Origin: Eledone cirrhosa
Taxonomy: Eukaryota
Direction of reading: 5' to 3'
Length of the DNA stretch: 64,000 nt
Assembly (NCBI GenBank): GCA_964016885.1
Contig: OZ024741.1
Coordinates: forward strand, 27,900,001-27,964,000
Positions 11,801-47,439 of this stretch are shown piece by piece (position 1 is the first letter of the stretch; the number at the start of each line of letters is the position of its first letter). The notes beneath the pieces are model-generated. The model was given only the letters and a program-made list of their open reading frames with translations. It did not search any database and had not been told where the DNA came from. A program made the position numbers and the translations under genes.

Positions 11801-12147
11801 ACGGGGCGGCCAGCACGTGGGCCCCCATTTGCTTATAATAGTGAGAGATAGGGAGAGCGGAAGAGATGGAGACAGTGACAGTGGGAGTTTGGTTCTATTG
11901 TGTTTGGACCTGGTCTATATGTATTTATTTACCAACTCCATTAACTATACATTCTACACACAACATTGTATTACTGTCTAGAGCCACCTACCTATGTATC
12001 AATCTACGAAAAATATTAACAATATCTATCTAATTGTCAGTTTGTCTCTCTCTCTCCCAGACTGCCCATCTTTCTATCAATCTATCTAACTGTCTACCTA
12101 CCTTCTTATATATCTATCTTTCTGTGGTGGGGTATATATTAATATAT

Positions 12148-22127: not shown

Positions 22128-22974
22128 AAATATGTCTCACTTATTAGAGTGCAGCCATACTGAGGTACCGGCTTTTTTAGCTAATCATATCAACCTCAGT
22201 ATTCATTTTCAGTAATGAGAAGGAAGGTAGGCGTAAAAGCCAAACTCGCTATCTTCCAATCAGTATTTATGCCAGCCCTTACCTATGGTCATGAATCTTG
22301 GATAATGACTGAAAGAATACAACGACGAATACAAGCGGCCAAAATGTGATCCTCCAGAAGGATATTTGGAGTAGCGTTACTCGATAAAGTGCATAACTCA
22401 GAGATCAGAGAGTCACTCAAGGTAGAGCCACTACTTCTCCGAATTGAGAGGTCGAAGCACTGATGTTATGAGCATATGGTTAGAATGTCTCAGGAAAGAA
22501 TCCCTGGACAGATTTTACAGGCAAAAGCAACTGACAAGAGACCCAGAACAAGATCCATGAGCTTGGCTGGTCTCACTTGGGGATCCAGTCAGATCAGTTG
22601 GAGACAGTTGCTTCTGACAGGACCCGCTGGAAGGAGTGTTTGAGGATTCTTCCCCCATGATTCTCTCAGGAATATGTGGGCGAAGAAGAAGAAGAATTTG
22701 GTACTTACTTTACTGTTATTTTTTAGTCAAACAACCAAGTATAGACATCCTCCTCCTCATCATCTTTTAACGCCCATCTCCTCTGCTAGCAAGGGTTGGA
22801 TATGTCTTCACGGACTAAGTCATCACTCAAGTAGAGCTACTGACCTCTCACATGAGCCAATGAGTCTGCATCTAACTTACATATGTTTCTGCACTCTAGG
22901 CAGGTTATTGGAGGTGGGGGAGAGGCCATCTTGCTTACATATGTTCCCTATGCTCTACCAATTGCATCTTATTG

Positions 22975-24236: not shown

Positions 24237-24329
24237 GTTTAAGAATAAAAAAACGTTCTTGATATTAAATAAAGAATTAATTTCAATATTAGTATATTAA
24301 AATTAATATTCTGTTCTTTGTTTATTTTA

Positions 24330-24492
24330 CGGGGTGAGCGCGAACGCAGACCCCACACTTAGAAATAGCGCACCCGAGTCGCCCACATTTGGGGCGATCG
24401 CAAAGGTCAACCCAACCGGAGTGCAATGGAAGGGCCTCACTCTGGGAGAACCACCTAGCTGATCATGGTTAACCCCTGTGCCAGGTAAGTAT
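24330..24492 (-). ncRNA. U1: U1 spliceosomal snRNA gene, copy 1 (variant type)
   Basis: Reverse complement reads ATACTTACCTGGCACAGGGGTTAACCATGATC...CCATTGCACTCCGG...TGCGTTCGCGCTCACCCCG; 163 nt; U1 5' end, U1A loop, SL4 UUCG tetraloop. Confidence 0.97.
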
Positions 24493-24544
24493 GCTTAATT
24501 CAATACTTACTATACTTATATAAAATTAAACTTGCGATAGATCT

Positions 24545-24553
24545 ACTGATTTT
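24545..24553 (-). promoter_or_regulatory. Candidate PSE core AAAATCAGT of U1 copy 1 (copy 2: 28355-28363)
   Basis: Same 9-mer at -61..-52 in all four U1 genes despite divergent flanks. Confidence 0.75.
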
Positions 24554-24740
24554 ACCCCAACCACAACTACTGCAAATTTAATTACCCAATATAAAAATCC
24601 ATAAAACTTCCAAATTGTTCTATTTGTGCAACTATTTACTACTCTCTACTTTCAAAATTATTTTCCTTTATAAAAAGAATCTCAATTTAACAACTAAAAT
24701 ATTTTTAATTACTGTTCCAACTCTAGTATCTTGTATTACT

Positions 24741-24756
24741 CAAGGGAGATAATTCA
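24741..24756 (-). promoter_or_regulatory. Candidate distal element ATTATCTCCCTTG of U1 copy 1 (copy 2: 28551-28566)
   Basis: ATTAYCTCCCTTG lies ~250-270 nt upstream of all four U1 genes. Confidence 0.7.
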
Positions 24757-25189
24757 ACTTTTTTTTCAGCATTAACTACAATCACAAACTTGTAGAAAAG
24801 TGCTTATCAATATTTTCTCTTCCTCCTTCCAGGAAAGTAAGTTGGGAGAAATATCAACGTTGTTTCAAGCAGATCGATGAATCATGCAAATTGATATTCG
24901 TGTGTGCGAGAGTGTTTGTATATGTATGCGTGTCTATATACTATATTACGGTTTATCTAGCTAGATATTACACAATAACATACATATCTACTATATCAGA
25001 GTTATCTAGCTGTATCTTATACACATCACCAATATACTTTAATGAAGACGGTTTAACTGTTTTAAGAAATGTTTATATATTAATCAAGTTTAATACTGAG
25101 AACTGGATAATTAAGATAATAAAATTTGACATCCAAGTGACACTAAAACAATCTCTGTGTATCTGTCGGCTAACTACAATTTTCAGTCT

Positions 25190-26165
25190 GTGGCGTTCCA
25201 GACGTTTGGGGGAATCGGGTTACTGATTGCGATGTTCCTATCTTGACTGGCGGCTCACCTAACAGAGGTAACTGGTGTTGTTCATAAGGGAACTTGGCTG
25301 TTCCAGCATATCAGCCTCGCCATCACCCGAGGTAATGCGGCGAGCGTGCTGGCGTGCCTCAATAATTATTAGAGAGGTTTCCTAGTGCTTCTTGCGATAC
25401 TGTTATCTTCTGTTCTGGCAGCGGTTCGTTTGTCCATCCCTTTCGCCTGACTTTTGTTGTATGTAGTCATAGATGTATTACTAGCTTGTGTGATTTCTTT
25501 TCTTTCTCTCTTCTTTTTTCTTTCTATTTGTACTATTATGTTGACGGTTACGTCTTAATAAAATGAATATTTATTTAGTCATTTGCTAGTAATATATACA
25601 TATATATGTGTGTGTGTGTGTGTGTGTTCGGTGAAATAAATTATATGATGTAGTGATTTGTAAATGTAGATTTCCAAACCTTTGGAGTAACGTTACTTGA
25701 TGGGGTGCGTAGCTTGGAGATAAGGGAGTCGCTACAGATAGAGCAGCCAATTTTCCGAATCAGAAGATCACGACTCTGGTACTACGAATGTGTGTTTACA
25801 AAGTAAAAAATCTTTTATTCACAATTGTACAAAAAAACATAATAATATAATTGTTACTGAACGAAAACACAAACACATATAATATATACAAAGCAGGTAA
25901 TACATACACCTATGACCACATACAACAAAAGGGAGACGAAAGTATTGGGCAAACGACTCGCAACCAAAGCAAAAGATAACAGTATCGCGAGGAGCACTGG
26001 AAAACCTCTCTAAAAAGGTTTTAGGCAAGCCAAAACACTCGCAGCATCACTATGGGTGATGGCGAGGTTGATGTGCTGGAACAACCAAGTTCCCTTATAA
26101 ACAACACCAGTTACCTCTGTTAGGCGAGCCGCCAGTGAAGATAACCTCGCAATCAGTAGCCCGGG
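25190..26165. mobile_element. Tail-to-tail pair of CRE-like retroelement 3' ends (25190-25570 +, 25810-26165 -)
   Basis: AFQTFGGIG...WLFQHISLAITRGNAASVLAC on the plus strand, then its reverse complement. Confidence 0.7.
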
Positions 26166-26699
26166 AAAGAATAACTAGAGATTTTACAGGTAAAGCCAAT
26201 AAGCAGGTGACCCAAGGCTAGATGGTTGGATAACATCCATGAGTTCGGTTGTGGGTCTATCCAGATCATTTGGAGACGGCTTCTTCTGATAGAACCCTCT
26301 TCCATGTCCGAACATCAAAGTTATAGTTTAGATGTCCATTGGTATGATGAAATATATAATAAGAGTGAAAATGTAACTTTTCTTTCTCCATATAGTGTAG
26401 GTTATATGTTTGCGTGAGAGTAGGGTGAAGTTGAGGTAAATTTGACTGTTGTTTCTATGAGGTCGATTAATTACATGTATGATAGTCGGTTGAGCGTATA
26501 TTGTTAGAGAAGTGTAAAAGCTAACAGTGAATTGAAGTGTAATAGCAATTAGTTGAAGTAAAATGAAGGTAATTGTGAGAAATTTTATTTATGGAATATA
26601 TCATATAAATACAGTTTAATAGAAAAAGAAAAGAAATAAAATTTAGATTGAGAAGAATACAATGTAAAATAGGAAAATATAGAGAAAAAACAGGAATGG

Positions 26700-27330
26700 C
26701 AAGGACTCTAGTGTCACGGTAGAATGGGAGGGTGAGGATGATTGTATTCTTGGCGCGGTGGTTGAGTGGCTGCGGCCAGCGACACCCGCTGCAACAGCAA
26801 CCCCACCGCGCGAGGTTCCCTCCTCAGACGGGCCGCTGACGTTCCGATCTTGCGGAGGAGCTCGACTGTTGGTGGTTCAAGTACGCCTGGGGTCTCCACG
26901 GCGACTGATGCGAAGAGGAAACGGTCGGACAATCCCCGAAATTCGTTTATTTTCTGCAAGGCGGGCCGCGGTACCAGGGTTTGTGGCCGAAGTGACTAAG
27001 TTGGAGGCGGATAACGTGTCGCAACATGTGGCGTTCCAGATGAGGGATCTACCTCCTTTGAATGGGAAGAGGGTGATAACAACGGGACAATTGCCGTCTC
27101 CGCGGTCTAGGCGAGCTGGCTCCGGTGGTGATGGAAAGCCAGCTGCATCCAGGCTCCTTCTCAGTATGTCGTTGAGAGCGATGTGTCGGGGTAACCGGCT
27201 TGCGCTCTGGCGGCAAGACAGAGGCTGCAGGCCGAACTTGTCAACAACCGCCCTGCAACGGCATTTATGTTGCTCACGCACGCAGAGGCCGAGGCATTGG
27301 TTGTATAATGAGGGACAGAGGAGCATGTTA
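26700..27330 (-). mobile_element. CRE-clade non-LTR retrotransposon fragment (zinc knuckle plus restriction-like endonuclease), frameshifted
   Basis: CRC..VVDKFG..PLSC...RH..LNDILRRSL..AG....EP..LDRGDG..P....L.PF..G..LIW..T..DT, continuing in another frame VAVETPGVL...LLQRVSLA. Confidence 0.85.
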
Positions 27331-27563
27331 CATAAAGGACTTGGCAGTAGAAATAAATAAGGAAGGGTAAGTTATATGAGGGAAAGTGTAAAACAAGGTT
27401 CTCGAAGTGGCTGCAAGTGCCCCCAGGGAGGCATTGAGAGGGTCCAGAGGTACGCTGGAGCCTAAGGGGTAGTAAAGATGATACATATATATATAGTAAA
27501 ATAAAAAATATATATTTACTTATACACAGTATATATTGTATTATTTATTATATATTATATATA

Positions 27564-27752
27564 GGGCGGTGGATTGGCAGTATCGGTAGAGGGTCGGACG
27601 CCTTGCTTTCCAGCATAGTTACGTCCCTTTACGATCTGAGTTCAAATCCCGCCGAGGTTGACTTTGCCTTTCATCCTTACGGGGTCGATAAAATAAAGTA
27701 CCAGTAATGCACTGGATTTTTGCTGGCCTTGTGCCTAAAGTAGAAACAATTA
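27564..27752 (+). mobile_element. tRNA-derived SINE (further copies at about 1-90, 3880-4030, 23690-23820, 27895-28080, 29175-29340, 30072-30295, 30481-30665, 32560-32650, 35135-35270, 36320-36540, 36590-36730)
   Basis: Shared core gagttcaaatcccgccgaggttgactttgcctttcatccttacggggtcgataaaataaagtaccagt. Confidence 0.88.
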
Positions 27753-28139
27753 TTTATTATATATTATTTACAATTTGCGTGTAGGTAAATCTCTCTGGAA
27801 ATAGGGGTTGGGGACGCTAAAATATTACGTTGACGTGAGAGTGCGGTGGCCCAAAATCTGTTGTGAAAGAAATTAGAAAAAATAGCTATTGATAATAATT
27901 GTTTCTACTTTTGGCACAAGGACAGCAAAACACTCAGTGTATTATTGGTACTTTATTTTATCGACCCCGTAAGGATGTAAGTTAACCTCGGCGGAATTTG
28001 AACTCAGAATGAGAACGGCCGTAACTCTTTGCGTCAAAGCATGGCGTCCCACGCTATACCGATACTGCCAATCCACCGCCATTTTATTGATACTAATAAA
28101 GGATTAAATTCATTATCAGTCTGTTCTTTGTTCATTTTA

Positions 28140-28302
28140 CGGGGTGAGCGCGAACGCAGACCCCACACTTAGAAATAGCGCACCCGAGTCGCCCACATTT
28201 GGGGCGATCGCAAAGGTCAACCCAACCGGAGTGCAATGGAAGGGCCTCACTCTGGGAGAACCACCTAGCTGATCATGGTTAACCCCTGTGCCAGGTAAGT
28301 AT
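28140..28302 (-). ncRNA. U1: U1 snRNA gene, copy 2 (variant type)
   Basis: Coding region identical to copy 1; ~500 bp of upstream flank is also nearly identical (offset 3810). Confidence 0.97.
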
Positions 28303-28742
28303 GCTTAATTCAATACTCACTATACTTATATAAAATTAAACTTACGATAGATCAACTGATTTTACCCCAACCACAACTACTGCAAATTTAATTACCCAAT
28401 ATAAAAATCCATAAAACTTCCAAATTGTTCTATTTGTGCAACTATTTACTACTCTCTACTTTCAAAATTATTTTCCTTTATAAAAAGAATCTCAATTTAT
28501 CAACTAAAATATTTTTAATTACTGTTCCAACTCTAGTATCTTGTATTACTCAAGGGAGATAATTCAACTTTTTTTTCAGCATTAACTACAATCACAAACT
28601 TGTAGAAAAGTGCTTATCAATGTTTTCTCTTCCTCCTTCCAGGAAAGTAAGTTGGGAGAAATATCAACGTTGTTTCAAGTAGATCGATGAATCACGCATA
28701 TTGATATTTGTGTGTGTGTGTGCGTGAGTGTTTGTATATATA

Positions 28743-28777
<35 letters not shown>

Positions 28778-29584
28778 ATGTATGTGTCCCGAGTGCCTAT
28801 CTACTATATCATGGTTTATCTAGCTAGATATTAGGAAGAGGCTATGTAACCGGTCCCGGTAAAAGAAACTGCCAGGCTATGTAGCCGGTAAGAGTGTCAC
28901 ACACCATCAGTTGTGGCATTTTACGGTCTGTGTTAAAATCTTTTCCACCATCAATTGTTAAAAAACAAGTTAAAATCACTTAGTCATCCAGTCGTAACGT
29001 ACTTTTACGCTTTAGTTACATACACACATCTACACGTAAATACACAAAGAGATAGAGACAACAGAAGTGCACACCCACATATATACACGTAAATACATAA
29101 ACAGATACAGACAATAGAAGTGCAAACCCACACATCTACTCATACATATTCATAAATAGACACATTATCTATTCGTAGGTCGGACGCCATGCTTTCCAGC
29201 ATAGTTACGTCCCTTTACGATCTGAGTTCAAATCCCGCCGAGGTTGACTTTGCCTTTCATCCTTACAGGGTCGATAAAATAAAGTACCAGTAATGAACTG
29301 GATGATTGCTGGCCTTGTGCCTAAAGTAGAAACAATTATCTATTCGTAGATATTACACAAGAATATATCTACTATATCAGAGTTTATCTAGCTGCATGTT
29401 ATACACACACACATTCACTAATATCATTCTTTAGGCAGGATTCACTGCTTGCTGAGACGCAAACTTTCACTTTTGACAGACAATAAGAAACCAGTGCCAA
29501 TTCTTTAATGAAGATGGTTTGTTTTAATAAATGTTTCTATATTAATTTAGTTTAATACTGAGAACTCGATAATTAAGGTAACTA

Positions 29585-30060
29585 GTGATGCTCGTGAGGG
29601 CGCTTGGTTGTTCCAGCGCATCGGTCTCGCCATCAACCTGGGTAACGCTGCGAGGGTACTGGCTTGCCTCAAAAATTATTAGAGAAGTTTCCCAATGTTC
29701 CCCGCGATACTGTTATCTTTTGCTCCGGCAGCGGTTCGTTTGTCCACCCCTTTCGTCTCGTCTCCCTTTTGTTGTGTGTGGTCCTTCGAGACGTTCGGTG
29801 GAGTTGGGCCGCTGACAGTGAAGTTCTGGTGGCTCACCATACTGAGGTGTCAAGTGATGCCCGTGAAGGTGCTTGGTTATTTCAGTGCCTTAGCCTCGCC
29901 ATCACCAGTGGTAATGTTGCGAGAGTACTGGCTTGCGTCAAGTGTGTAGTTAACTCTTAAGGTGTGAGGTGCGTCCGATTATCGCACTTGGTGGTGAATT
30001 GCACCCCCCCCCTTTTTTTTCTTTCTTTTATTATTATTGTTCAATGAATTTATATCATTA
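29585..30060 (+). mobile_element. Two stacked CRE-like 3' fragments
   Basis: WLFQRIGLAINLGNAARVLAC followed by SFETFGGVGP...REGAWLFQCLSLAITSGNVARVLAC. Confidence 0.7.
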
Positions 30061-32819
30061 TATTTTTACACGGGCCGTGAATTGGCAGTATCGGTAGAGG
30101 GTCGGACACCATGCTTTCCAGCATAGTTACGTCCCTTCACGGTCTGAGTTCAAATCCAGTTACGTCCCTTTACGGTCTGAGTTCAAATCCCGTCGAGGTT
30201 AACTTTGCCTTTCATCCTTACGGGGTCGATAATATAAAGTACCAGTAATGTACTGGGTAATCGCTGGCCTTGTGCCAAAAAGTAGAAACAATTATATTTT
30301 TATACACGGTTTCAACATATTTGTAATGTCCTTCTGAACGAATCGCGAGCATTTGTAATGTTATTAATGTATATTTGCAATGTTATTCTACTGTAAATTT
30401 ATACAATTGTAAAAAAAAGAAATAAATAAATGTATTACCTGCTTTGTACATATTATACGTGTTTGTTTCCGTTCAGTAACCATTGGCAGTATCGGTAGAG
30501 GGTCGGACGCCATGCTTTCAAGCATAGTTACGTTCCTTTACGATATGAGTTCAAATCCCCCCGAGGTTGACTTTGCCTTTCATCCTTACGGGGTCGATAA
30601 AATAAAGTACCAGTAATGCACTGTGTAATTGCTGGCCTTGTGCCTAAAGTAGAAACAATTATATTATTATATTTTTTGTACAACTGTGAATAAAATTTGA
30701 AATCCAAGTGACACTAAAACAATCTCTGTGATTAACAATACCTCAAAGTTCATTATCATTTCACGTCCTCTTTTCATGTTAGTGTCGGCTGGATTGTTTG
30801 ACAGAGTTCACGGCTTGACCCGTTAGAGATATCTCATGCTCATAAGTTCCATATATAAGTCATTTGTTAGTAATATATGTCTATTTGGGAGTGTTCGGTG
30901 AAATAAATTATTTGTTGTATTGATTTGTAAATGTAAATTTCCAAGCCTTTGGAGTAAACGTTACTTGATAATATGCGTAGCTTGTAGATGAGGGAGACGC
31001 TACAGGTAGAGCAGCCAATTTTCCGAATCAGATCACGACTCTGGTACTACGAATGTGTGTTTACAACGTATAAGGAAAGAGTCACCAGAGAGATTTTACG
31101 GGTAAAGCCAACCAACAGGAGACCCAAGGCTAGACCAGAAGCAGTTCGGTACACTTCTTGATAGAGTAAATATGTAAACTACTGCTTTTTTACAGACCCC
31201 ATGGGGGTCTTGCAGACTCTTACTAACTTTCCTGGTGTTACAGACTCTTACTCTCTCTCTCTTTCACTCAATCTCTATCTCTTAGTCTCTCTCTTAATCA
31301 AGCCAGTGAAGTTCATGAAGTTTTCTTGGTAAATACAATTTAATTCTACTTTTACAAACAAACAAATAACGTCCATAATTCTTGTGTATTTTTCGTATAG
31401 GTTCGGCGTAAGCTATTTTCAATAAATTAATAATATAGCGGTTTGGTGTCATCGTGGTTCATTTATATATATTTATTTTCTGTGTGATCAAGGAACTATC
31501 ACATCATCATTTTAATGAACATTTACTCACTTACCTTCACACATGCAACCTCTAATCACACTATCACACAACAGTGACCACACAACACAGCAAGCTACAA
31601 GTGAGCACACATGCAACAAATGAATCAACACCACAAAACAATCACGACCACCAAATCATCGCTATAGATCAGTTTGGAGACGGCTTCTTCTGATAGAACC
31701 CTCTTCTATGTCCGAATATTGAGGTTATGGTTTAGATGTTCAGTGGTATGATGAAAGATATAATAAGAGTGAAAATGTAACTTTTCTTTCTTCATATAGT
31801 ATAGGTTATATGTTTGCGTGAGAGTAGGGTGAAGTTGAGGTAAATTTGACTGTTGTTTCTATGAGGTCGATTAATTACATGTATGATATTCGGTTGAGTG
31901 TATATTGTTAGTGAAGTATAAAAGCTAAGAGTGAATTGAAGTGTAATAGGAATGATGAAAGTGTGTAGAAATAGTAGGCAAGAGATCCTGAAATATGTTA
32001 GTCTATTGTAAGAGGAAGAGAGTGGATAATGTGGAAGAGCGTTGATGATAGGCCGGCCTGGTGAGTAAGATTTGAGAATAGAGAAAAGTGTTAGATTAGG
32101 TTGGTATAAATAGGAGAATGTTACCTAAAGGAATTGGCAGTAGAAATAAATAAGGAAGGGTAGGTTATATGAGAGAAAGATAAGTGGAGAGTGTAAAACA
32201 AAGGTTCTCAAAATGGGCGTTACTGCCTCCCGGGGGGCATTGAGAAGGTCCAGGGCGTGGTGGTTGGAGTCAAATGAGGTAGTGGAGGGCAGTAGAGATG
32301 ATATAATATTATATTAAATATCAAATGATAATTATATATAAATATAGTAAAATAAAAAAATATATAATACAGATTTATACATAGTATACATATATTATTT
32401 ATTATATATAAATTAACAATTTTATTTGTTATATACTATTTACAATTTATGTGTAGGCAGGTCTCTCTTGAAATAGAGGTGGGAGCGCTAAGGGTATTAC
32501 GTGGCCTTGAGGGGGGCGGTGGTCCCAAAAGTCTGAGCACCTCTGGTATAGACTCTCTGCTCTCCGAGTTTAAATCCCGCCGAAGTCAACTTTGTCTTTC
32601 ATCCATTCGAGGTAGATAAAGAAAGTACCAGTCAAGTACTGCGGTCGATCTTCCTCTATATTTCTTTCTTACTCCCATTCTATCTATCCTTCTCGAGAAG
32701 AAATCTGCTGTATTCACATCTGTAGAGAAGATGGGCTCGGCCAGATTTTAAAATGCCGTATGTCAATACAGCGCCCCTACGACTCTTTCAGGAGTTACTA
32801 GATCAAGCCATGCCATGCA

Positions 32820-33304
32820 TCAACTAATCGAACCTCCGAACATGCCGCAAAGGACCCCTGAAAAAAAAAATGGAGGGGGAGGGGTTGAACTTATCTTTCA
32901 CCACCGGAGTTTTTTTTTTTCGTGATTTATTTTTCATTTTTTAGTTAATTGTATTTTACGACAAATGCCGGAAGGGTTAAGGGTATGGTTTAGGGATTAG
33001 GGTTAGGGTTAGCGTGTTTGGAGGTCAGATACGATGATAACCCACGAAAAAAAGTTTCCCACCAAACGCGAGAGGAGTGCAGATCTGCGAAACTCCGAGG
33101 TTCTTCCTCCCTTTCATTCTGCTTTTTCTACAAAGTTGGTCGTTTCCGACTGGTTTGGGACGTCAGATTCGTTGATAACAAAAAAAAAAAGAAGAAAACT
33201 GTAGACGGGCGGGCGCATCGTGATGTCTAAGGCAAGGATCCTTTCTTCTGTTTCTCAGGAAAGAAATAGTCAATTGCGGCATGTTCGGAGGTCAGATTAG
33301 TTGA
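32820..33304. mobile_element. Non-autonomous TIR element (31-bp TIRs) with internal degenerate (TTAGGG)n
   Basis: tcaactaatcgaacctccgaacatgccgcaa (32820-32850) vs ttgcggcatgttcggaggtcagattagttga (33274-33304), 2 mismatches; gggttaagggtatggtttagggattagggttagggttag at ~32973-33011. Confidence 0.7.
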
Positions 33305-34282
33305 CAGCACACGAAAATAAAGCGAGGAAAATATAATTATTTCCCATTGAAATCGAAAGTGTTGTTCTATAAATTTACCAAAGTTCCAGTGTTTATCTTT
33401 CTATCTCAATAGCTACTCCCGGGTCTCGAATAATGTCCCCTCCCACTCCTCTCTTATCAAATTTTGCTAATCTATCTCCAGCGAAATTTGTTTTAAGTGG
33501 TAGCATTCCTGCGACAATTAATTTTCTTTATACATTAAAAAACATACATGACAGAAAAAGTTCATTACTAGAAATTCCATACGTTATAAAATAAAAAGGA
33601 TGGGTCTAAGTATGTAAACTAAACGACTAATTCTGTTTTTTTTTTAAATCAACGGAGACAACCTAGAAAAATTACCCCCACCCCCTATTATTTGGGACTC
33701 GAGATTACATAGACTCTAGCTCCGCCGATTACGATAAAAATTCCAGTAGTTCGATCAACGGAACAGCCTACTAGTGAATTTAACGTGAAAGTGGCTGAGC
33801 ATTCCATAGACACGTGTACCCTTAACGTAATTCTCAGGGAGATTAAGCGCGACAGTGTGTGATAAGGCTGACTCTTTGAATTACAAGTAGAGTCCATCTG
33901 ACCGGCTTCCTAACAGTTTTTTTTCATCTACCAAATTCCACTCACAAAACATGGGTCGTTCCGCATGCCCATGATGCTATGTTGTGTGATCGAACCCGAG
34001 ACTTAATTATTGTGAAACAAATTCCTAAACTATTCTGCTATGCTGTGTCTCGCTTACGATCCGAATCAGTTTGACGAATCTATGAAACTAGTACACGACT
34101 TGCCGCCAGTTCGTAATTCAATAGCATTTCCCGCTATTTTCCCAACAGAAACACGTGAACATGATTTTATGCACGGAGACAACAATGAAAAAGCGCGTTA
34201 CCTCACACATTATCTTTTAACAATCATAAAAAAAATATATATCAAGTCAGTGGATTCGATTTTAGACTTCATTAACTGTCTC

Positions 34283-34297
34283 TGATTACCTCCCTTG
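34283..34297 (+). promoter_or_regulatory. Candidate distal element TGATTACCTCCCTTG of U1 copy 3
   Basis: At -260..-246; the identical 15-mer precedes copy 4. Confidence 0.72.
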
Positions 34298-34482
34298 TTC
34301 AAGATAAAATATTTACGATTAACTTAAAAAAGATTATAATTGAAGACTTTAAATTCTACAATGGCAAATAAAATTATTGTTTGAATAAAATTATTATTGG
34401 AAATAATGATTTAATTGAAAATAATTAAAAGTAATTTAACTAAAGTTTTAGAAAATTATTATTTTGAAAAGTATTTAGTTGT

Positions 34483-34491
34483 AAAATCAGT
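34483..34491 (+). promoter_or_regulatory. Candidate PSE core AAAATCAGT of U1 copy 3
   Basis: At -60..-52 from the U1 +1. Confidence 0.75.
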
Positions 34492-34542
34492 GATTGTAAA
34501 AGAAAATAAATGTATATAATGTGTGGAGCTATATGAGCAAGC

Positions 34543-34705
34543 ATACTTACCTGGCACAGGGGTTAACCATGATCAGCTAGGTGGTTCCCCCAAAGTGAGG
34601 CCCTTCCATTGCACTCCGGTTGGGTTGACCTTTGCGATCGCCCCAAATGTGGGCGACTCGGGTGCGCTATTTCTAAGTGTGGGGTCTGCGTTCGCGCTCA
34701 CCCCG
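34543..34705 (+). ncRNA. U1: U1 snRNA gene, copy 3 (variant type, two substitutions vs the other copies)
   Basis: ATACTTACCTGG...CACCCCG; differs from the others at 34588 (C vs T) and 34593 (A vs G). Confidence 0.97.
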
Positions 34706-34726
34706 TAAAATAAACAAAAATCAGAA
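34706..34726 (+). terminator. snRNA 3' box-like element
   Basis: TAAAATRAMCAAARAWCAGA follows all four U1 copies and resembles the AAARNNAGA part of the metazoan 3' box. Confidence 0.65.
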
Positions 34727-37258: not shown

Positions 37259-37555
37259 CTGCTGGGTTCAATATAATCGATTTTGCTGCTTTTGTACCTA
37301 AATTAGAACCATTGTATGTACCAGAAATGCCGCTCTGTGTTTTTGTAATGCATATTTCGTAATGTATCTGGCGCACAGCTTCAAAAACTCACAGCGTGGT
37401 TATGTATAATAAACATAACCACGCTGTGCGCCAGATACATTACGAAATATGCATTACAAAAACACAGAGCGGCATTTCTGGTACATACAATGGTTCTAAT
37501 TTAGGTATAAAATCAGCAATATTGAGAGGAAAGTCAATTATATTGAACCCAGCAG
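37259..37555. repeat. Long hairpin: perfect 85-bp arms (37295-37379 / 37423-37507) with an inner 16-bp hairpin
   Basis: Direct complementarity; inner stem cacagcgtggttatgt (37390-37405) / acataaccacgctgtg (37413-37428); outer 19-bp stem 37259-37277 / 37537-37555. Confidence 0.9.
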
Positions 37556-37972
37556 GATAAAAAGCAAAGTTAACATCGACACGATGTGAAACAGTCCTTA
37601 AACAAATATCTTATAAATTTAACGCACATGCAAGTAAGCGAAGTGCTCTCCCTTGACGCATTCTTTAGCTTGGTGCTGCGTTACCGTGGCGTTCTTAGTG
37701 ATGCATAAATTTTCTCATTTATTTTTTCGTTGCCATCATAAAGAAACATGTGCGCTTAGATCAATTATTGTAAGGCCTCCTTAACTTTATTTCTCATATA
37801 GTACAACGCTTATTTATGACCAGATACTCGTCCTTCGGTAAACACATTTATTTTATACAGAATTTTAAACATAAGTTTGTGTGTGTTTTATCTGAGCTTT
37901 GTCTATTTCTGTTGATTCATGTGTGGGTTAGTGCGTATGTGTGTGTTATGTCTCACTGGACCAGTGTGTGTG

Positions 37973-38039
<67 letters not shown>

Positions 38040-38738
38040 GGTTAGTGCGTATGTGTGTGTTATTATGTCTCTATGGACCAGTGTGTGTATCATATATATA
38101 TATATATATGTGTGTGCTTATGAGTCAATGGATGTGTTCGTGCGTATGGCCTAATATGTGTATGTGTATGCGGGTATGCATGTGTTCGTGTCTTCCGACA
38201 AAAACAATTCATTTAATGTTAATATGTTGACTGTCAGTTGAGTTTTTTTTTACCGTGTTTTCCTGCGTGTAAGATAATTTTTTTCAAATCCCAAAATGTT
38301 GCCCAAATCTTTCTGTACTCTATACACCGAGACTATAATACACCTATGAATATAACAATTATAATATACTATATAAATAGAGCTGCTTACATGTTGTTCC
38401 CGTTTTCTTTCTTATATTTCTTTCTTCTATCTTCCTATTTCTTCTTCCCTCTCTCCCAAACACCGTCTCTTTTTTTCATTCTATGTTCCGATGAAAGATT
38501 AACATCCGAGACATTTAGATTTTTTTCCCCGACAATATGAAGCGTTGACCTAATCATTATTGTATTGTTCACTCGTTTTTTCCCTTGTTGACTTTTCTTA
38601 AGTATGTATGTTTATTTATATGTATGTATATATATTTATATGTATTCCAATATATATGTATGCATATATATGTATGTATATGTTTTTATGTGTGTGTATA
38701 TTTATATGTATGTATGCATATGAATGTATATGTTTGTA

Positions 38739-38773
<35 letters not shown>

Positions 38774-38820
38774 CATCATCATCATTTTATGTCTGCTTTT
38801 CCCTGCTTGCAAGGATGGGA

Positions 38821-38916
<96 letters not shown>

Positions 38917-39539
38917 TATATATGTACGTGTGTCTATACTATAAGTAAAGCTGAATATTATCCTTCTTTTCCCTAAACTGTAATATTCAAAATAAGATTG
39001 CAACTTATATTCCATTTTATTTTGGAATCAGTTTCATAAAAAAACAAAATACTGATATCATCGTTTATCTATCTTCCATGCTATTCATTTAATTTATTTG
39101 GAAACTACATAATTTGATAAGACTCAATATTAATTATTCTGAGTACAATCTCTTGTTTTGTTTTATGAATCCCCAGAGGAACGAAAGGTTACATTGAAAG
39201 TGGCCAATACAATGATAGTAATTAGTTATGTTGTTTTCTTTAGTATGAAAATAAAGTCCAAAGTATGTCTCAAGCCTCCTGGCTTGAGACATACTTTGGT
39301 GCTTATCCCAGTTTTGTGGTGTGAAGTGACAGAGAAAGACTCCCCCCTTGGATATGACGCTAGTCTATCACATGTTTTGTAGTGTGAAGTGACATGAACA
39401 AGTCCCCCCCCCCTTGGATATGAAGGCTACTTCTGACAGGACCTGCTGGAAGGAGTGTTTGAGGGCTCTGTCCCACTACCCTCTCAGGGATAAGTGAGTG
39501 AAGAAGAAAAGACCAACATACAACATTACCAGAGAGGGC

Positions 39540-40060
39540 AGAAGACATGCACAATCAGTCACATGCCATGGCAAGAGTGCTGTAATAATTTGAGGCAAAC
39601 CAACACACAATATTGCCACAGGTGATAGTGAAGCTAAAGTGTTGGAATAAGCAAGTGTTCTGATGGGCATCACCTGATTCATCTTTAAGACAAGCAGCTA
39701 ACGATGACAAGAACTTCAATATCAGTAGCCCTGCTTCATCAAACGTCTCAAACACTATAGGCTGAAAAATTACTGATCATTACTATTATTTTAGAATTTT
39801 ATTTCATTCAACTATGGATGTTGGGATATTCACGTTTAATGAGCATTCAGGTTGTAAGAAGCAGCAAAAGAATCGAGAACTGTGGAATCCCAAATAAGAC
39901 GTCTAGCTTTTAGCCAGGAGCAAAGGGTAAAAATCATCTGGCCCCTTACTATCATCCCTACACAATCTTGTTGGCTCCAGAATTGAAAGGGACATTGTTT
40001 CAAGCCAGGGCCCACATGGTAACTAGGTTCAGCTCGGTATGGCAAGTGAAGTGACCTGCG
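39540..40060 (-). mobile_element. Degenerate CRE-like retroelement fragment
   Basis: RLIWDSTVLDSFAASY and FETFDEAG...CLFQHFSFTITCGN motifs in adjacent frames. Confidence 0.6.
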
Positions 40061-41714
40061 TTAAAATAGAAAGACAACCCATGAAGACCTGATTCAACAA
40101 ACTCCCATGAATTACAGACTGTGTGATGTAGCTTAGAGTTGAAATGTTAGTTAAAATCTCATTTCATCTGAAACACAAAATGAAGATTGGTTTAGTGTTT
40201 ACTAAATTCCTTCTCTCAGTTTTATTTATGGCAAACTCCTCAATACTGGGTGTTTATTTTAGTTTTGAAAGAATCATATTTTACTATTTACATCATCATC
40301 ACCTTCGTTTAACGTCCATCTTCCACGCTAGCATGGGTTAGACGGGAGTTGTCCCACTTGAGGCAAGGTTGGTCGGGTGACCGTGTCTCGCTCATATAGG
40401 TCTATCTGGCAGGTTTTCTATGGCTGGATACCCTTCCTAACACCAACCACATTTACAGTGTGGAACTGGGAACTTTTTACCGTGTTACCTACATGGCCAC
40501 ATTACAGCGTAGACTGTTTTTTTGTTGTGACACCTACACGATCTCGATCTTATTATCTCATTTATTTGGACTGGATGTCATATAAACACAATTTATATAA
40601 GAAATATAATTGATAAAAAAGATATATCAATAAAAATTAGATAAAGATAGATTTAAAAAAATGGAAGAATAGATGCACACTCAACTACACATTACAACAG
40701 GGAATGCTGGTGTTTCGCTCTAAAAACTGTTGAGGCAAGCCAAGACACAGTGAGCATCAACTAAAACTAAGGTGAACTGCTAACAATAGAAGTGTTAAGC
40801 AGTTTAAGATAGAAATCTCTCAGTAAATAGGAAGCTGACACACTGCATTCGAAATAGATAAAATAGTTGTCAGTCGTCCAGGTTTTCTGCTGCAGTGAAC
40901 CTTATCTCCCACTGAGTTAAGTCTTCCTTATTACTGACATACAGGATCGGCGCTACTATTAAGGACAAGTAGGTAGCCGTCTAGGCTGCAGACCTCAGTG
41001 AGGCTCATTCCTGGACTTTAAAGAATCACTGTTTTAAACATATTTGTATAATTAAATTACATATCAATAAATAAAACGCTAATCATCTTTGCTGGCAGTG
41101 TTGCAGAGCTACCCAATGTAGCAGAGAGGGTCGTGTGGTGGTAGGCCTACATACTATAAACATATCAAGTGTATCACACTGATGCCAGTATTGTAATCTC
41201 GATATTTAATTCCTAATTTACTGTAACTAGTTCTGTATATTTGTTATTGTTGGGGATTGGTTTCTGAATTTCATTTCTCCAGAGTTAAAATAAATACCAG
41301 TAATATACTACGGTTAACAAATTATCTTCGATGAAAATCAACTTCGTGTATAGTTTGCAAAAATGAATTAACTAAAAGATCATTCGCAACATATTTGAAT
41401 TCATACTATTGTCAAATTACAAAAATAATGCAGGGCAAGGGAAATAACTCCAACCTAATTATCTAAATAGTATATATTTGGGGCGGGTCACGTTGTCCTA
41501 ATATTGCCCAAAATAGTAAAACGCATTCCCTATTTGATTTGGTTTTCGCTTCAGTATATTTAAAAAAAATATTTCTATGAATAATTTAGCTGGCAATCAA
41601 TATTTATTATTGATTGACCAACAGTTAAAAATATGAATATAGTTTCTCAAAGGATCACTATTTTATACATATTTATTTGTATATACTTTGCAATTCTAAT
41701 GTCAGAATAAGAAT

Positions 41715-42115
41715 AAAATCGGAACGTCAGCAGCCCGTCTGAAGAAGGAGCATCGCAATGTGGGGTGGCTGTTGCAGCACGTGTCGCTGGCCATTGTCCG
41801 CGGAAATGCCTTTGCAGTTTTGTCCGCGGGGTACAGCCGAAACACCGCCCCGACCTAGGCACAGAGTATGTCACCCTCTCCCATTCCCCTTCTCTTTCTC
41901 CCTTGTTCTTTCCCCCTTTTCTTCACATTTACGGCATTTATAGTCCTTTCCTCTAACTTCCTATATAACCAGATCTGCCCTTCTTTACTCTTTCCTCCTT
42001 GTTTTTTCATCACTTAATTTTTTAAAAATCTTTTTTTAAATATTTGTATAACTTCTGTTTGTAAAATATACTTGACATAATAAAACCATAGCTAACCTAA
42101 AAAAAAAAAAAAAAA
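41715..42115 (+). mobile_element. CRE-like retroelement 3' end with poly(A) tail (partial second copy at ~42430-42760)
   Basis: KIGTSAARLKKEHRNVGWLLQHVSLAIVRGNA, the same family as 26700-27330; A-run at 42099-42115. Confidence 0.75.
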
Positions 42116-43662
42116 GAATAGTATATATTTCCCAAATTCAATATCAGAAAGATACAGGCACTAGAAATGAGATGCTACCGCGACATCTTAGACATCAAAA
42201 AATACACAGACCATACCACAGATAAACAGGTCTGCAAAACTATCCAACATCATATTGGCCATCATAAATACCTTGTTATAACAGTAAAAAAAAGAAACTG
42301 AGATGGTATGGCCTTCTAGACCATTCTAGAAGGAACAGTGGAATTTGGGAGAAAAGGAGAAGCAGACAGAGAAAAAGATGGATTGACCTCAAGTATCCTC
42401 GGACCCTATACTGCCGAGCTCCTCTGTAAAATCGGTCGTCACTGGCCATTGTCCGCGGGGCGCAGCCTAAATACCACCCCGCTCTAGGCATAGAGCCTAC
42501 CCCCCCCCCCTTCATCCGTGGCCTCATAGTCTTTTTCCCCTCTCTTTTTTTTTCTCATTTATGGGAATTATAGCATTTTCTACTACTTTCCTCTACAGTC
42601 AGTTCTGTCCTTCTTTACCCCCCCCCCTGTTCGTTGCTTGGTTTTGTTTTTATTCTCTTTTTTCTTTTTCTTTTATATTTCCATCAATATTTGTAATGTT
42701 ATTTATACAATTGAATTGATTTATCAAGCAAATAAGTATATGTTTACTGTTAATTTCATTAAGCAAATTGTTAGAGGAGACCCGAGATCAAGCTCGCAAC
42801 CGCGACAGATAAAGATTAATGTACGGCATGTACCAGGAGGAGTCGAGGGCCTACGATACAATGTGGGATAACTAACTTCTGACAAATGAAGATTGCAGTA
42901 GAGCTTCGATTCTAGACTGATACAAGTTCACTTCATTTTTTGTTTCAAGATTATTATATTGTTATCGATTCCAGATACTATAGATATAAATAACGGTTAA
43001 TAACTCTACGCATGCGCATTCTCATAGAATTTCTAAATTAGGCGATATCCAATTTTAGCGGACTAAATGCCGCTTACTTCAATGTATGAGGCTATTCCAA
43101 CAAATTTACATTTCCCTTTTTTTAGCCGTTAAAAGAAATATAGATTTATTTATTGTTTTTTTTTTGCGATTTATTTGCCACTGGGGCATAGATTTCTTTA
43201 TTTGCCCCTTTTTTGTTTGTTTGTTGTTTTGCGATTTATTAGCCTTTTGGGGTCACAGACACCCCCGTAGAAAGTGTGCGACTTTTCTGCCAGGGAGCAC
43301 AGAGAGAGGGGGGTGTTCCCTTCTTCTCTTACCTGTACAAGCCGATATAGAGAGATGGCCCACTTACACGGGCCATTATTGCTACTTTCACCCATCTTTC
43401 ATGGAATTGGCTGGGACTGAGTGCCTTTTTCTCCACCTTGATCCTTCTTTCGAAGTGGTATCGGAAGAAGAGGACCATTTGTTGGCCGGCGACATATCCC
43501 CACAGTTTCCTCGTTGCAAACGCATCTGGGACATTTCTTTTCCAAGGGGTTTCCGTCCCGGAATCCGTGTCTGTAGAGCCTTTCCCGAACGGGCAGGGCC
43601 CCTCGGTATAATAGTAAGTATTAGTGGTTGTAATAAAAATGCAATCAAAATGTAATAAATAC

Positions 43663-43798
43663 CTTCACTGATTTCTTTCCTTATATTATCAACAGAAGTT
43701 GGTATGTCACCCAAAGTTCGCTTTGTATGTTCCCGAATAGCAGTGAATTTTGATAAAACTGTTTCTAATTCCTTCTCCACAGTAAGACAAATATCCAT
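43663..43798 (-). pseudogene. RMND5: RMND5 (Gid2, CTLH E3 ligase subunit) first coding exon, isolated copy 1
   Basis: MDICLTVEKELETVLSKF resembles human RMND5A MDQCVTVERELEKVLHKF; homology ends at a phase-1 donor GAAG|GTATTT; no further RMND5 exons recognised in the window. Confidence 0.8.
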
Positions 43799-43971
43799 GT
43801 GTAGTTGAAGAGGATAAGTATGAAAGAACAGTCATTTAAATTTACAGATGGACAGATGAGGTGTTTGGCATGGTTTGAGATATATAGAAAAATAATTATT
43901 TACAGAAAAAGAAAATAATAATAAAGAATTATTATAATTTTTTAAAAGATTTATATCTTTTTGGACTACAC

Positions 43972-44107
43972 ATGGATATTTGTCTTACTGTGGAGAAGGA
44001 ATTAGAAACAGTTTTATCAAAATTCACTGCTATCCGGGAACATGCAAAGCGAACTTTGGGTGACATACCAACTTCTGTTGATAATATAAGGAAAGAAATC
44101 AGTGAAG
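43972..44107 (+). pseudogene. RMND5: RMND5 first coding exon, isolated copy 2
   Basis: As copy 1 (EHAK instead of EHTK); donor GT at 44108. Confidence 0.8.
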
Positions 44108-44163
44108 GTATTTATTACATTTTGATTGCATTTTTATTACAACCACTAATACTTACTATTAAA

Positions 44164-44570
44164 CCGAGGGGCCCTGCCCGTTCGGGAAAGGCTCTACAGA
44201 CACGAATTCCGGGACGGAAACCCCTTGGAAAAGAAATGTCCCAGATGCGTTTGCAACGAGGAAACTGTGGGGATATGTCGCCGGCCAACAAATGGTCCTC
44301 TTCTTCCGATACCACTTCGAAAGAAGGATCAAGGTGGAGAAAAAGGCACTCAGTCCCAGCCAATTCCATGAAAGATGGGTGAAAGTAGCAATAATGGCCC
44401 GTGTAAGTGGGCCATCTCTCTATATCGGCTTGTACAGGTAAGAGAAGAAGAGAACCTCCCCTCTCTCTGTGCTCCCTGGCAGAAAGGTCGCACACTTTCT
44501 ACGGGGGTGTGTGTGACCCCAAAAGGCTAATAAATCGCAAAAAAACAAACAAACAAACAAAAAAGGGGCA
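44164..44570 (+). mobile_element. Tx1/L1-type LINE 3' end with an internal deletion, present in each of the four arms
   Basis: Alternative frames read RGALPVRERLYRH...KKCPRCVCNEETV (zf-RVT-like) and LFFRYHFERRIKVEKKALSPSQFHERWVKVA...* (stop 44439-44441); AATAAA at 44529 and an A-rich tail. Confidence 0.75.
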
Positions 44571-45215
44571 AAGGCGATATCCAATTTTAGCTGTCTAAAT
44601 GCCGCTTACTTGCTGCAGTTACTGCTTACTTCAATGTATGAGGCTATTCCAACAAATTTACATTCCCCCTTTTTTTAGCCGTTAAAAGAAATATAGATTT
44701 ATTTATTGTTTTTTTTTTGCGATTTATTTGCCACTGGGGCATAGATTTCTTTATTTGCCCCTTTTTTGTTTGTTTGTTGTTTTGCGATTTATTAGCCTTT
44801 TGGGGTCACAGACACCCCCGTAGAAAGTGTGCGACTTTTCTGCCAGGGAGCACAGAGAGAGGGGGGTGTTCCCTTCTTCTCTTACCTGTACAAGCCGATA
44901 TAGAGAGATGGCCCACTTACACGGGCCATTATTGCTACTTTCACCCATCTTTCATGGAATTGGCTGGGACTGAGTGCCTTTTTCTCCACCTTGATCCTTC
45001 TTTCGAAGTGGTATCGGAAGAAGAGGACCATTTGTTGGCCGGCGACATATCCCCACAGTTTCCTCGTTGCAAACGCATCTGGGACATTTCTTTTCCAAGG
45101 GGTTTCCGTCCCGGAATCCGTGTCTGTAGAGCCTTTCCCGAACGGGCAGGGCCCCTCGGTATAATAGTAAGTATTAGTGGTTGTAATAAAAATGCAATCA
45201 AAATGTAATAAATAC

Positions 45216-45351
45216 CTTCACTGATTTCTTTCCTTATATTATCAACAGAAGTTGGTATGTCACCCAAAGTTCGCTTTGTATGTTCCCGAATAGCAGTGAA
45301 TTTTGATAAAACTGTTTCTAATTCCTTCTCCACAGTAAGACAAATATCCAT
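45216..45351 (-). pseudogene. RMND5: RMND5 first coding exon, isolated copy 3
   Basis: Same translation as copy 1, offset 1553. Confidence 0.8.
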
Positions 45352-45524
45352 GTGTAGTTGAAGAGGATAAGTATGAAAGAACAGTCATTTAAATTTACAG
45401 ATGGACAGATGAGGTGTTTGGCATGGTTTGAGATATATAGAAAAATAATTATTTACAGAAAAAGAAAATAATAATAAAGAATTATTATAATTTTTTAAAA
45501 GATTTATATCTTTTTGGACTACAC

Positions 45525-45660
45525 ATGGATATTTGTCTTACTGTGGAGAAGGAATTAGAAACAGTTTTATCAAAATTCACTGCTATCCGGGAACATGCAA
45601 AGCGAACTTTGGGTGACATACCAACTTCTGTTGATAATATAAGGAAAGAAATCAGTGAAG
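45525..45660 (+). pseudogene. RMND5: RMND5 first coding exon, isolated copy 4
   Basis: Same translation as copy 2, offset 1553; donor GT at 45661. Confidence 0.8.
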
Positions 45661-46728
45661 GTATTTATTACATTTTGATTGCATTTTTATTACAACCACT
45701 AATACTTACTATTATACCGAGGGGCCCTGCCCGTTCGGGAAAGGCTCTACAGACACGAATTCCGGGACGGAAACCCCTTGGAAAAGAAATGTCCCAGATG
45801 CGTTTGCAACGAGGAAACTGTGGGGATATGTCGCCGGCCAACAAATGGTCCTCTTCTTCCGATACCACTTCGAAAGAAGGATCAAGGTGGAGAAAAAGGC
45901 ACTCAGTCCCAGCCAATTCCATGAAAGATGGGTGAAAGTAGCAATAATGGCCCGTGTAAGTGGGCCATCTCTCTATATCGGCTTGTACAGGTAAGAGAAG
46001 AAGAGAACCTCCCCTCTCTCTGTGCTCCCTGGCAGAAAGGTCGCACACTTTCTACGGGGGTGTGTGTGACCCCAAAAGGCTAATAAATCGCAAAAAAACA
46101 AACAAAAAAGGGGAAAATAAAGAAATCTATGCCCCAGTGGCAAATAAATCGCAAAAAAATAAAAATAAATAAATCTATATTTCTTTTAACGGCTAAAAAA
46201 AAGGGGAATGTAAATTTGTTGGAATAGCCTCATACATTGAAGTAAGCAGCAAGTAAGCAGCATTTAGACAGCTAAAATTGGATATCGCCGTAAACAAACA
46301 AACAAACAAAAAAAGGGGCAAATAAAGAAATCTATGCCCCAGTGGCAAATAAATCGCCAAAAAAAACCCAATAAATAAATCTATATTTATTTTAACGGCT
46401 AAAAAAGGGGGAATGTAAATTTGTTGGAATAGCCTCATACATTGAAGTAAGCAGCAACTACAGCAAGTAAGCGGCATTTAGGCCGCTAAAATTGGATATC
46501 GCCTCTAATTGAAATAGGCATTCTTATCGTTAACTTTGAATATTTTAATATTTCGTTTAATAAAATGAAAAATAACTTGTTGTTATACTTGGGGAGGGTC
46601 ATATTGTTGTAATAATATTGCCAGAAATAATAACAGAACACACTCACTGTTTGGTTGGTTGAATAACTTGAAACAACATAAAATATTATATTCAGAACGA
46701 CTTAACGAAAATATTTGAATGGATTAAT

Positions 46729-46743
46729 TGATTACCTCCCTTG
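46729..46743 (+). promoter_or_regulatory. Candidate distal element TGATTACCTCCCTTG of U1 copy 4
   Basis: At -273..-259. Confidence 0.72.
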
Positions 46744-46941
46744 ATATAGCTTCTGCAGGAGTTATGGAGGTGAAGTGGAACAATAAAATCTATTAAATTA
46801 CACATTTTATAAAAGATTATCTAAGTAAATAGTTAAATAAAAAAAATTAAAAGTTTTAGTATAATTAGTTATATGTAAATGTTTTAAAAATATAATGGCA
46901 ACACTATTGAAAAATTAGCTTTTCAGAAAAGTTGCAGTCGG

Positions 46942-46950
46942 AAAATCAGT
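46942..46950 (+). promoter_or_regulatory. Candidate PSE core AAAATCAGT of U1 copy 4
   Basis: At -60..-52. Confidence 0.75.
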
Positions 46951-47001
46951 CAGTTTAGAATGCAAAGAATATATATAATAAATAGCCCCATTTGTTCAAG
47001 C

Positions 47002-47164
47002 ATACTTACCTGGCACAGGGGTTAACCATGATCAGCTAGGTGGTTCTCCCAGAGTGAGGCCCTTCCATTGCACTCCGGTTGGGTTGACCTTTGCGATCGC
47101 CCCAAATGTGGGCGACTCGGGTGCGCTATTTCTAAGTGTGGGGTCTGCGTTCGCGCTCACCCCG
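47002..47164 (+). ncRNA. U1: U1 snRNA gene, copy 4 (variant type)
   Basis: Coding region identical to copies 1 and 2, in divergent flanks. Confidence 0.97.
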
Positions 47165-47439
47165 TAAAATAACCAAAAATCAGATTATTGCTATTTCCTA
47201 TTTTTCTCCTAATGATTTCTACCTTCATCTTCTCTAATAGTATTTTATCTTAGAGTGAGCTCGTGACCCTGTGTGGTGTGCGACCAATTGAAATACTTTG
47301 TGTTGAATTGGTAAGGCCTTTCTTTATAATGTTCTTTTTTTTCCATTATCCCATGTATAATGTTTTTTAGAGTATAAAGAAAATTAATTGTCGCAGGAAT
47401 GTTACCACTTAAAATATAATTTTGCAGGAAATGGATTAG

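Follow-up and report, generated by a model that had tools for sequence, protein, structure and literature searches.

The closest described counterpart of the genes treated here is the human U1 small nuclear RNA (snRNA), whose small nuclear ribonucleoprotein (snRNP) is known from structures 4PJO and 4PKD (Kondo et al. 2015, PMC4383343). As described in that account, the U1-70K protein reads G28, the A29.A36 pair, U30, C31 and A32 of loop I, and its loop 3 embraces C33 and G34, with K138 and R191 sandwiching these two bases and binding phosphates (PMC4383343). The seven pockets of the human Sm ring hold the heptad AAUUUGU, the second A of which is irreplaceable; K20 of SmD1 and R47 of SmD2 flank the stacked G that follows the heptad (position 8), R66 of SmD1 forms one hydrogen bond with it, and the authors regard this pocket as not specific for G (PMC4383343, PMC4756616). 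Here we describe four U1 genes in a 64,000-nucleotide stretch of the Eledone cirrhosa genome (GenBank assembly GCA_964016885.1, contig OZ024741.1, positions 27,900,001 to 27,964,000 of the forward strand; the whole of this stretch is referred to as the window), which depart from the human RNA both in loop I and at the edges of the Sm site. Multigene families with subtypes are familiar from the human variant U1 genes (vU1; PMC10870369) and from developmental snRNA isoforms (PMC4291461), and vU1s with Sm-site changes are reported to bind Sm proteins still (PMC10870369). The vU1s as presented there are, however, minor genes beside a canonical U1 (PMC10870369), whereas here the deviant sites are present in every copy found.

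Exactly four RNAs were found in the window by Rfam, all of them full-length U1 (RF00003, 128.8-133.1 bits against a gathering score of 69.5), and all four matches span model positions 1-166 of 166. The genes (Table 1) share the 5' end AUACUUACCUG, loop I GAUCAGCUAG, loop II AUUGCACUCC, the Sm stretch UAUUUCUAAG and the UUCG of stem-loop 4 (SL4), and the 5' splice-site-pairing end of U1 has four exact matches in the window. An earlier reading of the DNA from its letters (the original prediction) had called four U1 genes with these motifs, and the Rfam matches and motif positions agree with it; the gene length is 164 nt by Infernal, not 163 nt as it stated, and the heptad AUUUGUG with terminal G that it ascribed to human U1 needs correction, as the pockets hold AAUUUGU and the G lies outside the seven (PMC4383343, PMC4756616). 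Likeness to the human RNA (RF00003; 4PJO/4PKD) extends over the full-length match, the 5' end, the four stem-loops, loop II AUUGCAC and SL4 UUCG. In the alignment of the four coding regions, differences occur at 2 of 164 positions, with copy 3 the odd one out. The flanks have diverged except for short islands upstream and downstream, the upstream flanks of copies 1 and 2 being nearly identical. So few differences within diverged flanks bear out the view that the genes have not undergone random decay. Free folding of the U1 RNA did not recover the four-way junction and was no better than that of shuffles (z -0.42), a result that is uninformative for a protein-held RNA.

A search of the whole assembly (3.0 Gb, 1796 contigs) with the covariance model, which scores only the best candidates, gave 42 U1 genes. 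A pattern that asked only for the 5' end and loop II, and so took no account of loop I or the Sm site, gave 45 matches (6 in the reversed control), these being the same 42 genes and three non-U1 sequences. No canonical U1 class was found by either method in the assembly (0/42). Loop I reads GAUCAGCUAG in six genes, four of them the window genes, and GAUCCGCUAG in the other 36, with a consensus of GAUC(A/C)GCUAG in 42/42; the A32 subtype of the window is therefore the minority (6/42), and A32C is found in 36/42. Both subtypes share one Sm site. The Sm stretch UAUUUCUAAG is present in 41 of the 42 genes, which likewise keep the core A-U-U-U-x-U (positions 2-7) unchanged, and the lone exception is a decayed copy in which position 1 is nonetheless U and position 8 is A. 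The loss of both the G at position 8 and the upstream purine, as originally predicted, thus holds in 42/42. With the same site type in every gene, the window genes would be the organism's U1, unless an array is absent from the assembly. They represent the sole U1 type found here and, as we consider probable, make an ordinary U1 snRNP, with a single U1-70K and a standard ring held through the conserved core of the Sm site while changes at its edges are tolerated.

Among the remaining genes, 28 near-identical copies lie in 2.67-kb tandem units (C2:180.97-181.0 Mb and C1128); these carry A32C and loop II AUUGCACUGC. It is possible that the A32 and C32 subtypes are stage-specific isoforms. A 43rd copy (C2:169424001), missed by the covariance search, has an intact promoter core and an internal deletion from loop II. 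Two other clusters of the 12-mer in the genome were considered as canonical U1 and proved to be a palindromic repeat and a tandem repeat. That the window genes might be pseudogenes, with the working U1 in an unassembled array, seems to us most improbable: snRNA arrays are often collapsed, and 19 of the 42 genes sit on an unplaced 52-kb contig, but near-identical coding regions stand in diverged flanks behind a shared promoter core, stems are compensated in other organisms, and the site-blind pattern shows no other U1 type.

The U1 stretch was present in 20 of the 24 runs listed, from nine organisms and some metagenomes; the RNA-labelled runs X15-X20, with shares of 0.27-0.55, form no part of the evidence. 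Contigs from four runs representing four organisms, three of them only guessed to be RNA, were aligned to the window U1. The same five listed positions differ from the window in all four organisms, and no change is listed in loop I or the Sm site (in one of the runs, cover begins directly beside loop I). Three of the five belong to compensated or consistent base pairs of stem I, in which A-U is replaced by G-C, C-G by G-C, and G-C or G-U by A-U; the opposite strand was taken from the loose-end consensus of one contig. Because the sites are shared with a clade that differs in its stems, this points to a U1 with these sites that is lineage-wide and under selection on structure. Of the options in the original prediction it was the last, a lineage-wide U1, that held, the sites being present in all 42 genes and free of listed change in the four other organisms. 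In one other organism, the 3' two-thirds of U1 recur in 1408 contigs that have flanks in common and show decay of the CpG type; these contigs probably represent a large repeat family derived from U1, which was not observed as such in the genome of the window.

The change at the edges of the Sm site is common to several snRNA families of this genome and extends beyond U1, a point that the original prediction had missed. Position 8 is A in 15 and G in 5 of the 20 U2 sites read (48 genes listed), the latter forming a separate cluster. In U4 it is U in 13, A in 3 and G in none of 16 parsed sites (18 read, 42 listed), and the 14 U5 sites read (43 listed) divide into 6 with G and 8 with C, all 14 having U at position 1. 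U11 has A at position 8 in 2/2, U12 has U at position 1 and G at position 8, and the U4atac site is canonical; U at position 1 is thus found in U1, U5 and U12. The Rfam consensus lines of U1, U2, U4, U5, U11 and U12 have G at position 8. The use of G, A, U and C alike at this position in one genome fits relaxed constraint better than a specificity switched to A. The U2 genes fall into two coexisting classes, a small cluster that has the canonical GAUUUUUGG (C13:36.17-36.18 Mb) and larger sets that have GAUUUUUAG (C3:307.3-307.5 and 321.6 Mb); for the effect of position 8 the genome thus contains its own control.

Coleoid cephalopods are known for heavy RNA editing, and ADAR could in principle convert the genomic A8 to inosine, restoring a G-like base. 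Such editing would suit the G-to-A change at position 8 in U1, most U2, some U4 and U11, and inosine would give back the O6 contact to SmD1 R66 seen in the human structure (PMC4756616). Contigs of the three runs guessed to be RNA show no A>G at 34675, a weak observation in that contigs are majorities and may come from precursors or DNA; the U or C at position 8 in the U4 and U5 arrays cannot be explained by editing, and we judge this account very unlikely. A search for U7 gave a best match of 29.7 bits, below the cut-off of 34, and 11 of 14 control genomes also gave matches. The sub-threshold candidate (C3:314686447-314686503, minus strand) combines a hairpin and an Sm site like that of U7 with a stretch reading UCUCUUU, but lacks a YCAGY core (see below) at -57.

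The loop I of the window genes was compared with U1 sequences from a metagenome scan (127 loci from 5 of 64 collection parts, 120 unique, of which 110 were kept and 10 low scorers dropped against a profile built from the set itself). The set mixes plants, protists and animals; 18 of 18 sequences in a spot check scored above the Rfam U1 cut-off, and positions 28-31 carry no information, GAUC having been fixed in the search pattern. Relative to human U1, G28, A29, U30, C31, A32, A36 and G37 are unchanged in the window and C33G, G34C and A35U differ, leaving the bases read by U1-70K (G28, A29.A36, U30, C31, A32) intact in 4/4 genes. The human loop sequence occurs in 13/110 of the other U1s, among which positions 33-35 are the most variable of loop I (position 33, A47/U30/C22/G11; position 34, G75/C24/U7/A4; position 35, A85/G14/C7/U4). 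G33-C34 is found in 7/110, C32 in 9/110 and the exact window loop in 1/110, an unrelated metagenome U1 (L211). Given this variability and the identical loop elsewhere, loop I lies within ordinary variation. The original prediction was correct in that positions 33-35 differ from human, but to call the loop rewired overstated the difference.

A search with the LSM family returned 25 matches, a lower bound as it was made exon by exon; SmB, D1, D2, D3, E and F are each represented by a single locus, some of these assignments, made from characteristic motifs, being putative. SmD1 and SmD2 are single-locus by protein search as well, and the residues that contact positions 1 and 8 (SmD1 K20 and R66, SmD2 R47, SmF Y39) are unchanged, which speaks against the variant Sm ring proposed in the original prediction. 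Its alternative of a U1-70K paralog fares no better: one locus is over the cut-off for PF12220 (the N-terminal family), and a search with the exon of the RNA recognition motif (RRM) finds itself and one further 47% match, which we take to be the U11/U12 35K protein. Two substitutions were rejected as compensating changes, SmD2 G54A, which is also present in two other PDB chains, and SmE D82E, which fits the loop consensus and is also found in two Octopus species and one unnamed protein. The best matches of the SmE exon are Octopus vulgaris and O. bimaculoides (93% over a query in which intron letters are included), and the readable stretches of the exon agree with these proteins, in keeping with a probable octopod. 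Nor do the SmG matches qualify as paralogs: all four belong to a 16.87-kb unit, 99.96% alike, with exons 2-3 only, and exon 1 occurs once in 72 kb. In these repeats (C2:330.23-330.29 Mb) the first copy ends DRVS and the others DRLS; they are possibly an assembly effect or a recent duplication. The only SmF gene found lies at C519:62.5-66.6 kb, on a 67-kb unplaced contig. Gemin5 is present, with one exon that maps to human 395-430 and leaves W422 unchanged by coordinate mapping; position 403 is T, with no outgroup for comparison, a second exon gave no match to human Gemin5, and W14, Y15, R335, M357 and R359 were not located.

Non-consensus Sm sites with dedicated replacement subunits occur in the U7 snRNP, with its Lsm10/Lsm11 ring, and in the trypanosome U2 and U4 cores. 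The genes described here resemble these in having a non-consensus site. They differ in that the searches gave no additional locus for SmD1 or SmD2, and in that the change affects edge positions in several snRNAs, not the ring of one RNA. In this light we assign very little probability to a specialised U1 particle that would act beside a canonical U1 and contain a paralog of U1-70K or a variant Sm/Lsm ring. Such a particle would accord with an Sm site outside the range of the sampled U1s (the nonamer being readable in 102 of the 110, with 8 unreadable), with the two subtypes of 6 and 36 genes, and with a gene in the genome that, going by its motifs, is presumably Lsm10-like. It is contradicted by the finding of no canonical gene among the 42, which leaves no specialised class beside a canonical one as first suggested, by the same Sm site in both subtypes, by the single loci for U1-70K, SmD1 and SmD2, and by the SmG matches being exon 2-3 repeats.

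The U1-70K gene itself has GT-AG borders and an open frame through its first eight exons, and its product retains F106, Y112, F148, R172, L175, D177, R190, R191, L196 and R200. Compared with human U1, the system keeps loop I G28-A32 and A36-G37, the Sm core A-U-U-U-x-U and partner proteins with their contact residues; it differs in loop I positions 33-35 (GCU, with A32C in 36/42), in U1 and A8 of the Sm site and in loop 3 of U1-70K, which before RNP1 reads KSVKMRG (C15:31881560-31881641, minus strand) instead of KRSGKPRG. An ordinary U1 snRNP is probably assembled from these parts on a standard seven-protein Sm ring, the outer positions of the site having likely been released from constraint across the snRNAs of the lineage. 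By analogy with the human structures, A126-U131 would fill the SmE-G-D3-B-D1-D2 pockets as usual, the U at position 1 would lie loosely in SmF, and A8 would stack between SmD1 K20 and SmD2 R47 with the loss of one hydrogen bond to SmD1 R66. U1-70K would recognise G28-A32 and the A29-A36 pair in the normal way; its hold on bases 33-34 would be mainly by stacking and phosphate contacts, with the altered loop 3 accommodating the change.

Several observations weigh against an ordinary U1 snRNP of this kind. Among the 102 other U1 Sm sites, position 8 is G84/U12/C6/A0 and position 1 is A89/C8/U4/G1, indicating that most eukaryotes sampled constrain both positions, and a U1 Sm site with A8 is truly unusual. 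With A at position 8, R66 is deprived of the O6/O4 acceptor presented by G and U, and the SmF pocket at position 1 favours purines (PMC4756616). A change of position 1 from A to C weakens the binding of human Gemin5; the position-8 base makes no contact in the Gemin5 structure as reported (Jin 2016, PMC5131779). From the purine preference and the Gemin5 effect it follows that some factor not found here may have changed. For loop I, A32C together with G34U raises the dissociation constant (Kd) of human U1-70K about 200-fold (Gopan 2022, PMC9371917), which weighs against a purely neutral view of the loop. In U1-70K, the loop that embraces bases 33-34 carries K138V (5/131), G141V (1/131) and P143M (0/131), the counts being of the same residue among the 131 homologs compared of 221 fetched. 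Tandem arrays can drop out of an assembly, no RNA run of this species was seen with mature U1, and the aligned contigs are only guessed to be RNA. As a separate observation, an unrelated metagenome U1 (L227) likewise has U at Sm position 1 and lacks G at position 8, a state parallel to that of the window genes.

The changes in loop 3 suggest another account, partly compatible with an ordinary U1 snRNP, in which U1-70K actively co-evolved with its RNA: loop 3 would have been remodelled to a U1A-like KMRG that reads the new loop I with shifted specificity. The altered residues 138, 141 and 143 adjoin the changed bases 33-34, and the majority U1 class changes both of the positions whose change weakens human binding (PMC9371917). 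Of the 149 homologs with RNP1, 148 have P at residue 143, as do 15 of the 16 cluster representatives that are informative, and M occurs in neither set; only these 16 of the 149 representatives are long enough to show loop 3. KSVKMRG also aligns to RSLKMRG, loop 3 of U1A (U1A/SNF RRM1, 4PKD chain B), although the rest of the protein is an orthodox U1-70K and the likeness may be due to chance. Residues 133-141, however, vary widely among homologs in any case, so that only P143M is striking; G33-C34 (7/110) and C32 (9/110) also occur in other U1s, whose U1-70K is not visible; and the homologs are biased to insects and non-cephalopod molluscs, with no cephalopod U1-70K named among the matches listed. 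One lineage amounts to one event, and no covariation statistic is possible for loop 3 and loop I. The co-evolved U1 of the original prediction gains an unusual loop 3 that the prediction had overlooked, while tolerance and co-evolution cannot be separated from a single lineage; we regard active co-evolution as a tentative and rather unlikely explanation.

A YCAGY core is present at -55 to -58 in 4/4 window genes. The distinct, intact upstream regions compared for U1, U2, U4, U5, U11, U12 and U4atac number 18, of which 16 have the core (background 5.7% per 21-nt stretch). The two exceptions are U11 and U4atac, and one decayed U1 copy also lacks the core. We infer that it is a proximal promoter element of these snRNA genes. 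The claim that the promoters are intact is supported to the extent that a positionally fixed core argues for a shared element; transcription does not follow from it. Downstream of copy 3 is AAAAATCAGA, a putative 3' box by the vertebrate consensus, and similar words follow U1, U2, U4 and U5 genes in the genome.

Table 1. Positions within the window of the U1 genes, their protein-binding sites and putative promoter and 3' elements (PSE, proximal sequence element)
Feature	Position	Strand	Remarks
U1 snRNA copy 1	24329-24492	-	RF00003 128.8 bits; loop I 24455-24464; Sm nonamer 24359-24367
U1 snRNA copy 2	28139-28302	-	RF00003 128.8 bits; loop I 28265-28274; Sm nonamer 28169-28177
U1 snRNA copy 3	34543-34706	+	RF00003 133.1 bits; loop I 34571-34580
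U1 snRNA copy 4	47002-47165	+	RF00003 128.8 bits; loop I 47030-47039; Sm nonamer 47127-47135
Loop I GAUCAGCUAG	34571-34580	+	Human positions 28-37; contacts as described in PMC4383343
Sm nonamer UAUUUCUAA	34668-34676	+	U at position 1, core A-U-U-U-C-U, A at positions 8 and 9
Sm stretch UAUUUCUAAG	34668-34677	+	U1 copy 3
PSE-like core TCAGT, copy 1	24545-24549	-	At -57; putative role; position common to U1, U2, U4, U5 and U12 upstream regions
PSE-like core TCAGT, copy 2	28355-28359	-	At -57; putative role
PSE-like core TCAGT, copy 3	34487-34491	+	At -56; putative role
PSE-like core TCAGT, copy 4	46946-46950	+	At -56; putative role
3'-box-like AAAAATCAGA	34716-34725	+	U1 copy 3

Elsewhere in the window, open reading frames of a retroelement resembling a long interspersed nuclear element (LINE), with reverse-transcriptase and PHD-finger domains, lie at 12034-13497 (+) and 20930-22180 (-), and several inverted copies of the element, 94-97% alike, are found between 8198 and 22128. 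Just upstream of U1 copy 4, the region 43114-46252 contains a direct duplication of 1553 bp, and nested in it are inverted repeats of 508 bp that are 98% complementary.

A literature search found no description of cephalopod or mollusc U1 Sm sites, most subscription journals lying outside its scope. Rfam full alignments may already contain these U1 sequences, and older comparative surveys of metazoan snRNAs may include them as well. The main text of PMC10584915 mentions neither octopus nor molluscs.

By their full-length covariance match, 5' end and loop I contact bases the genes of the window belong to the U1 family, and the one real oddity at this level, the edges of the Sm site, runs across the snRNAs of the lineage. 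The result is a natural experiment, in which the G after the U-tract has been replaced in most snRNA genes of a lineage and the residues of the Sm pocket are unchanged. The pocket has been called non-specific, yet A8 is found in 0/102 other U1s, and what normally holds the G in place, whether stability of the ring, selection by SMN/Gemin5 or folding of the precursor, becomes testable. The P143M substitution of U1-70K lies beside the altered bases of the loop and makes this core splicing factor a candidate case of co-evolution between RNA and protein. More speculatively, and with the odds in our estimate against it, octopods, and perhaps all coleoids, may have loosened the Sm rule at both edges in U1, U2, U4, U5, U11 and U12 and co-adapted the KMRG loop of U1-70K to the new loop I, giving a pair that would not be interchangeable with that of other animals. 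If this is true, the spliceosome of these animals would be a natural test of what selects the edges of the Sm site.

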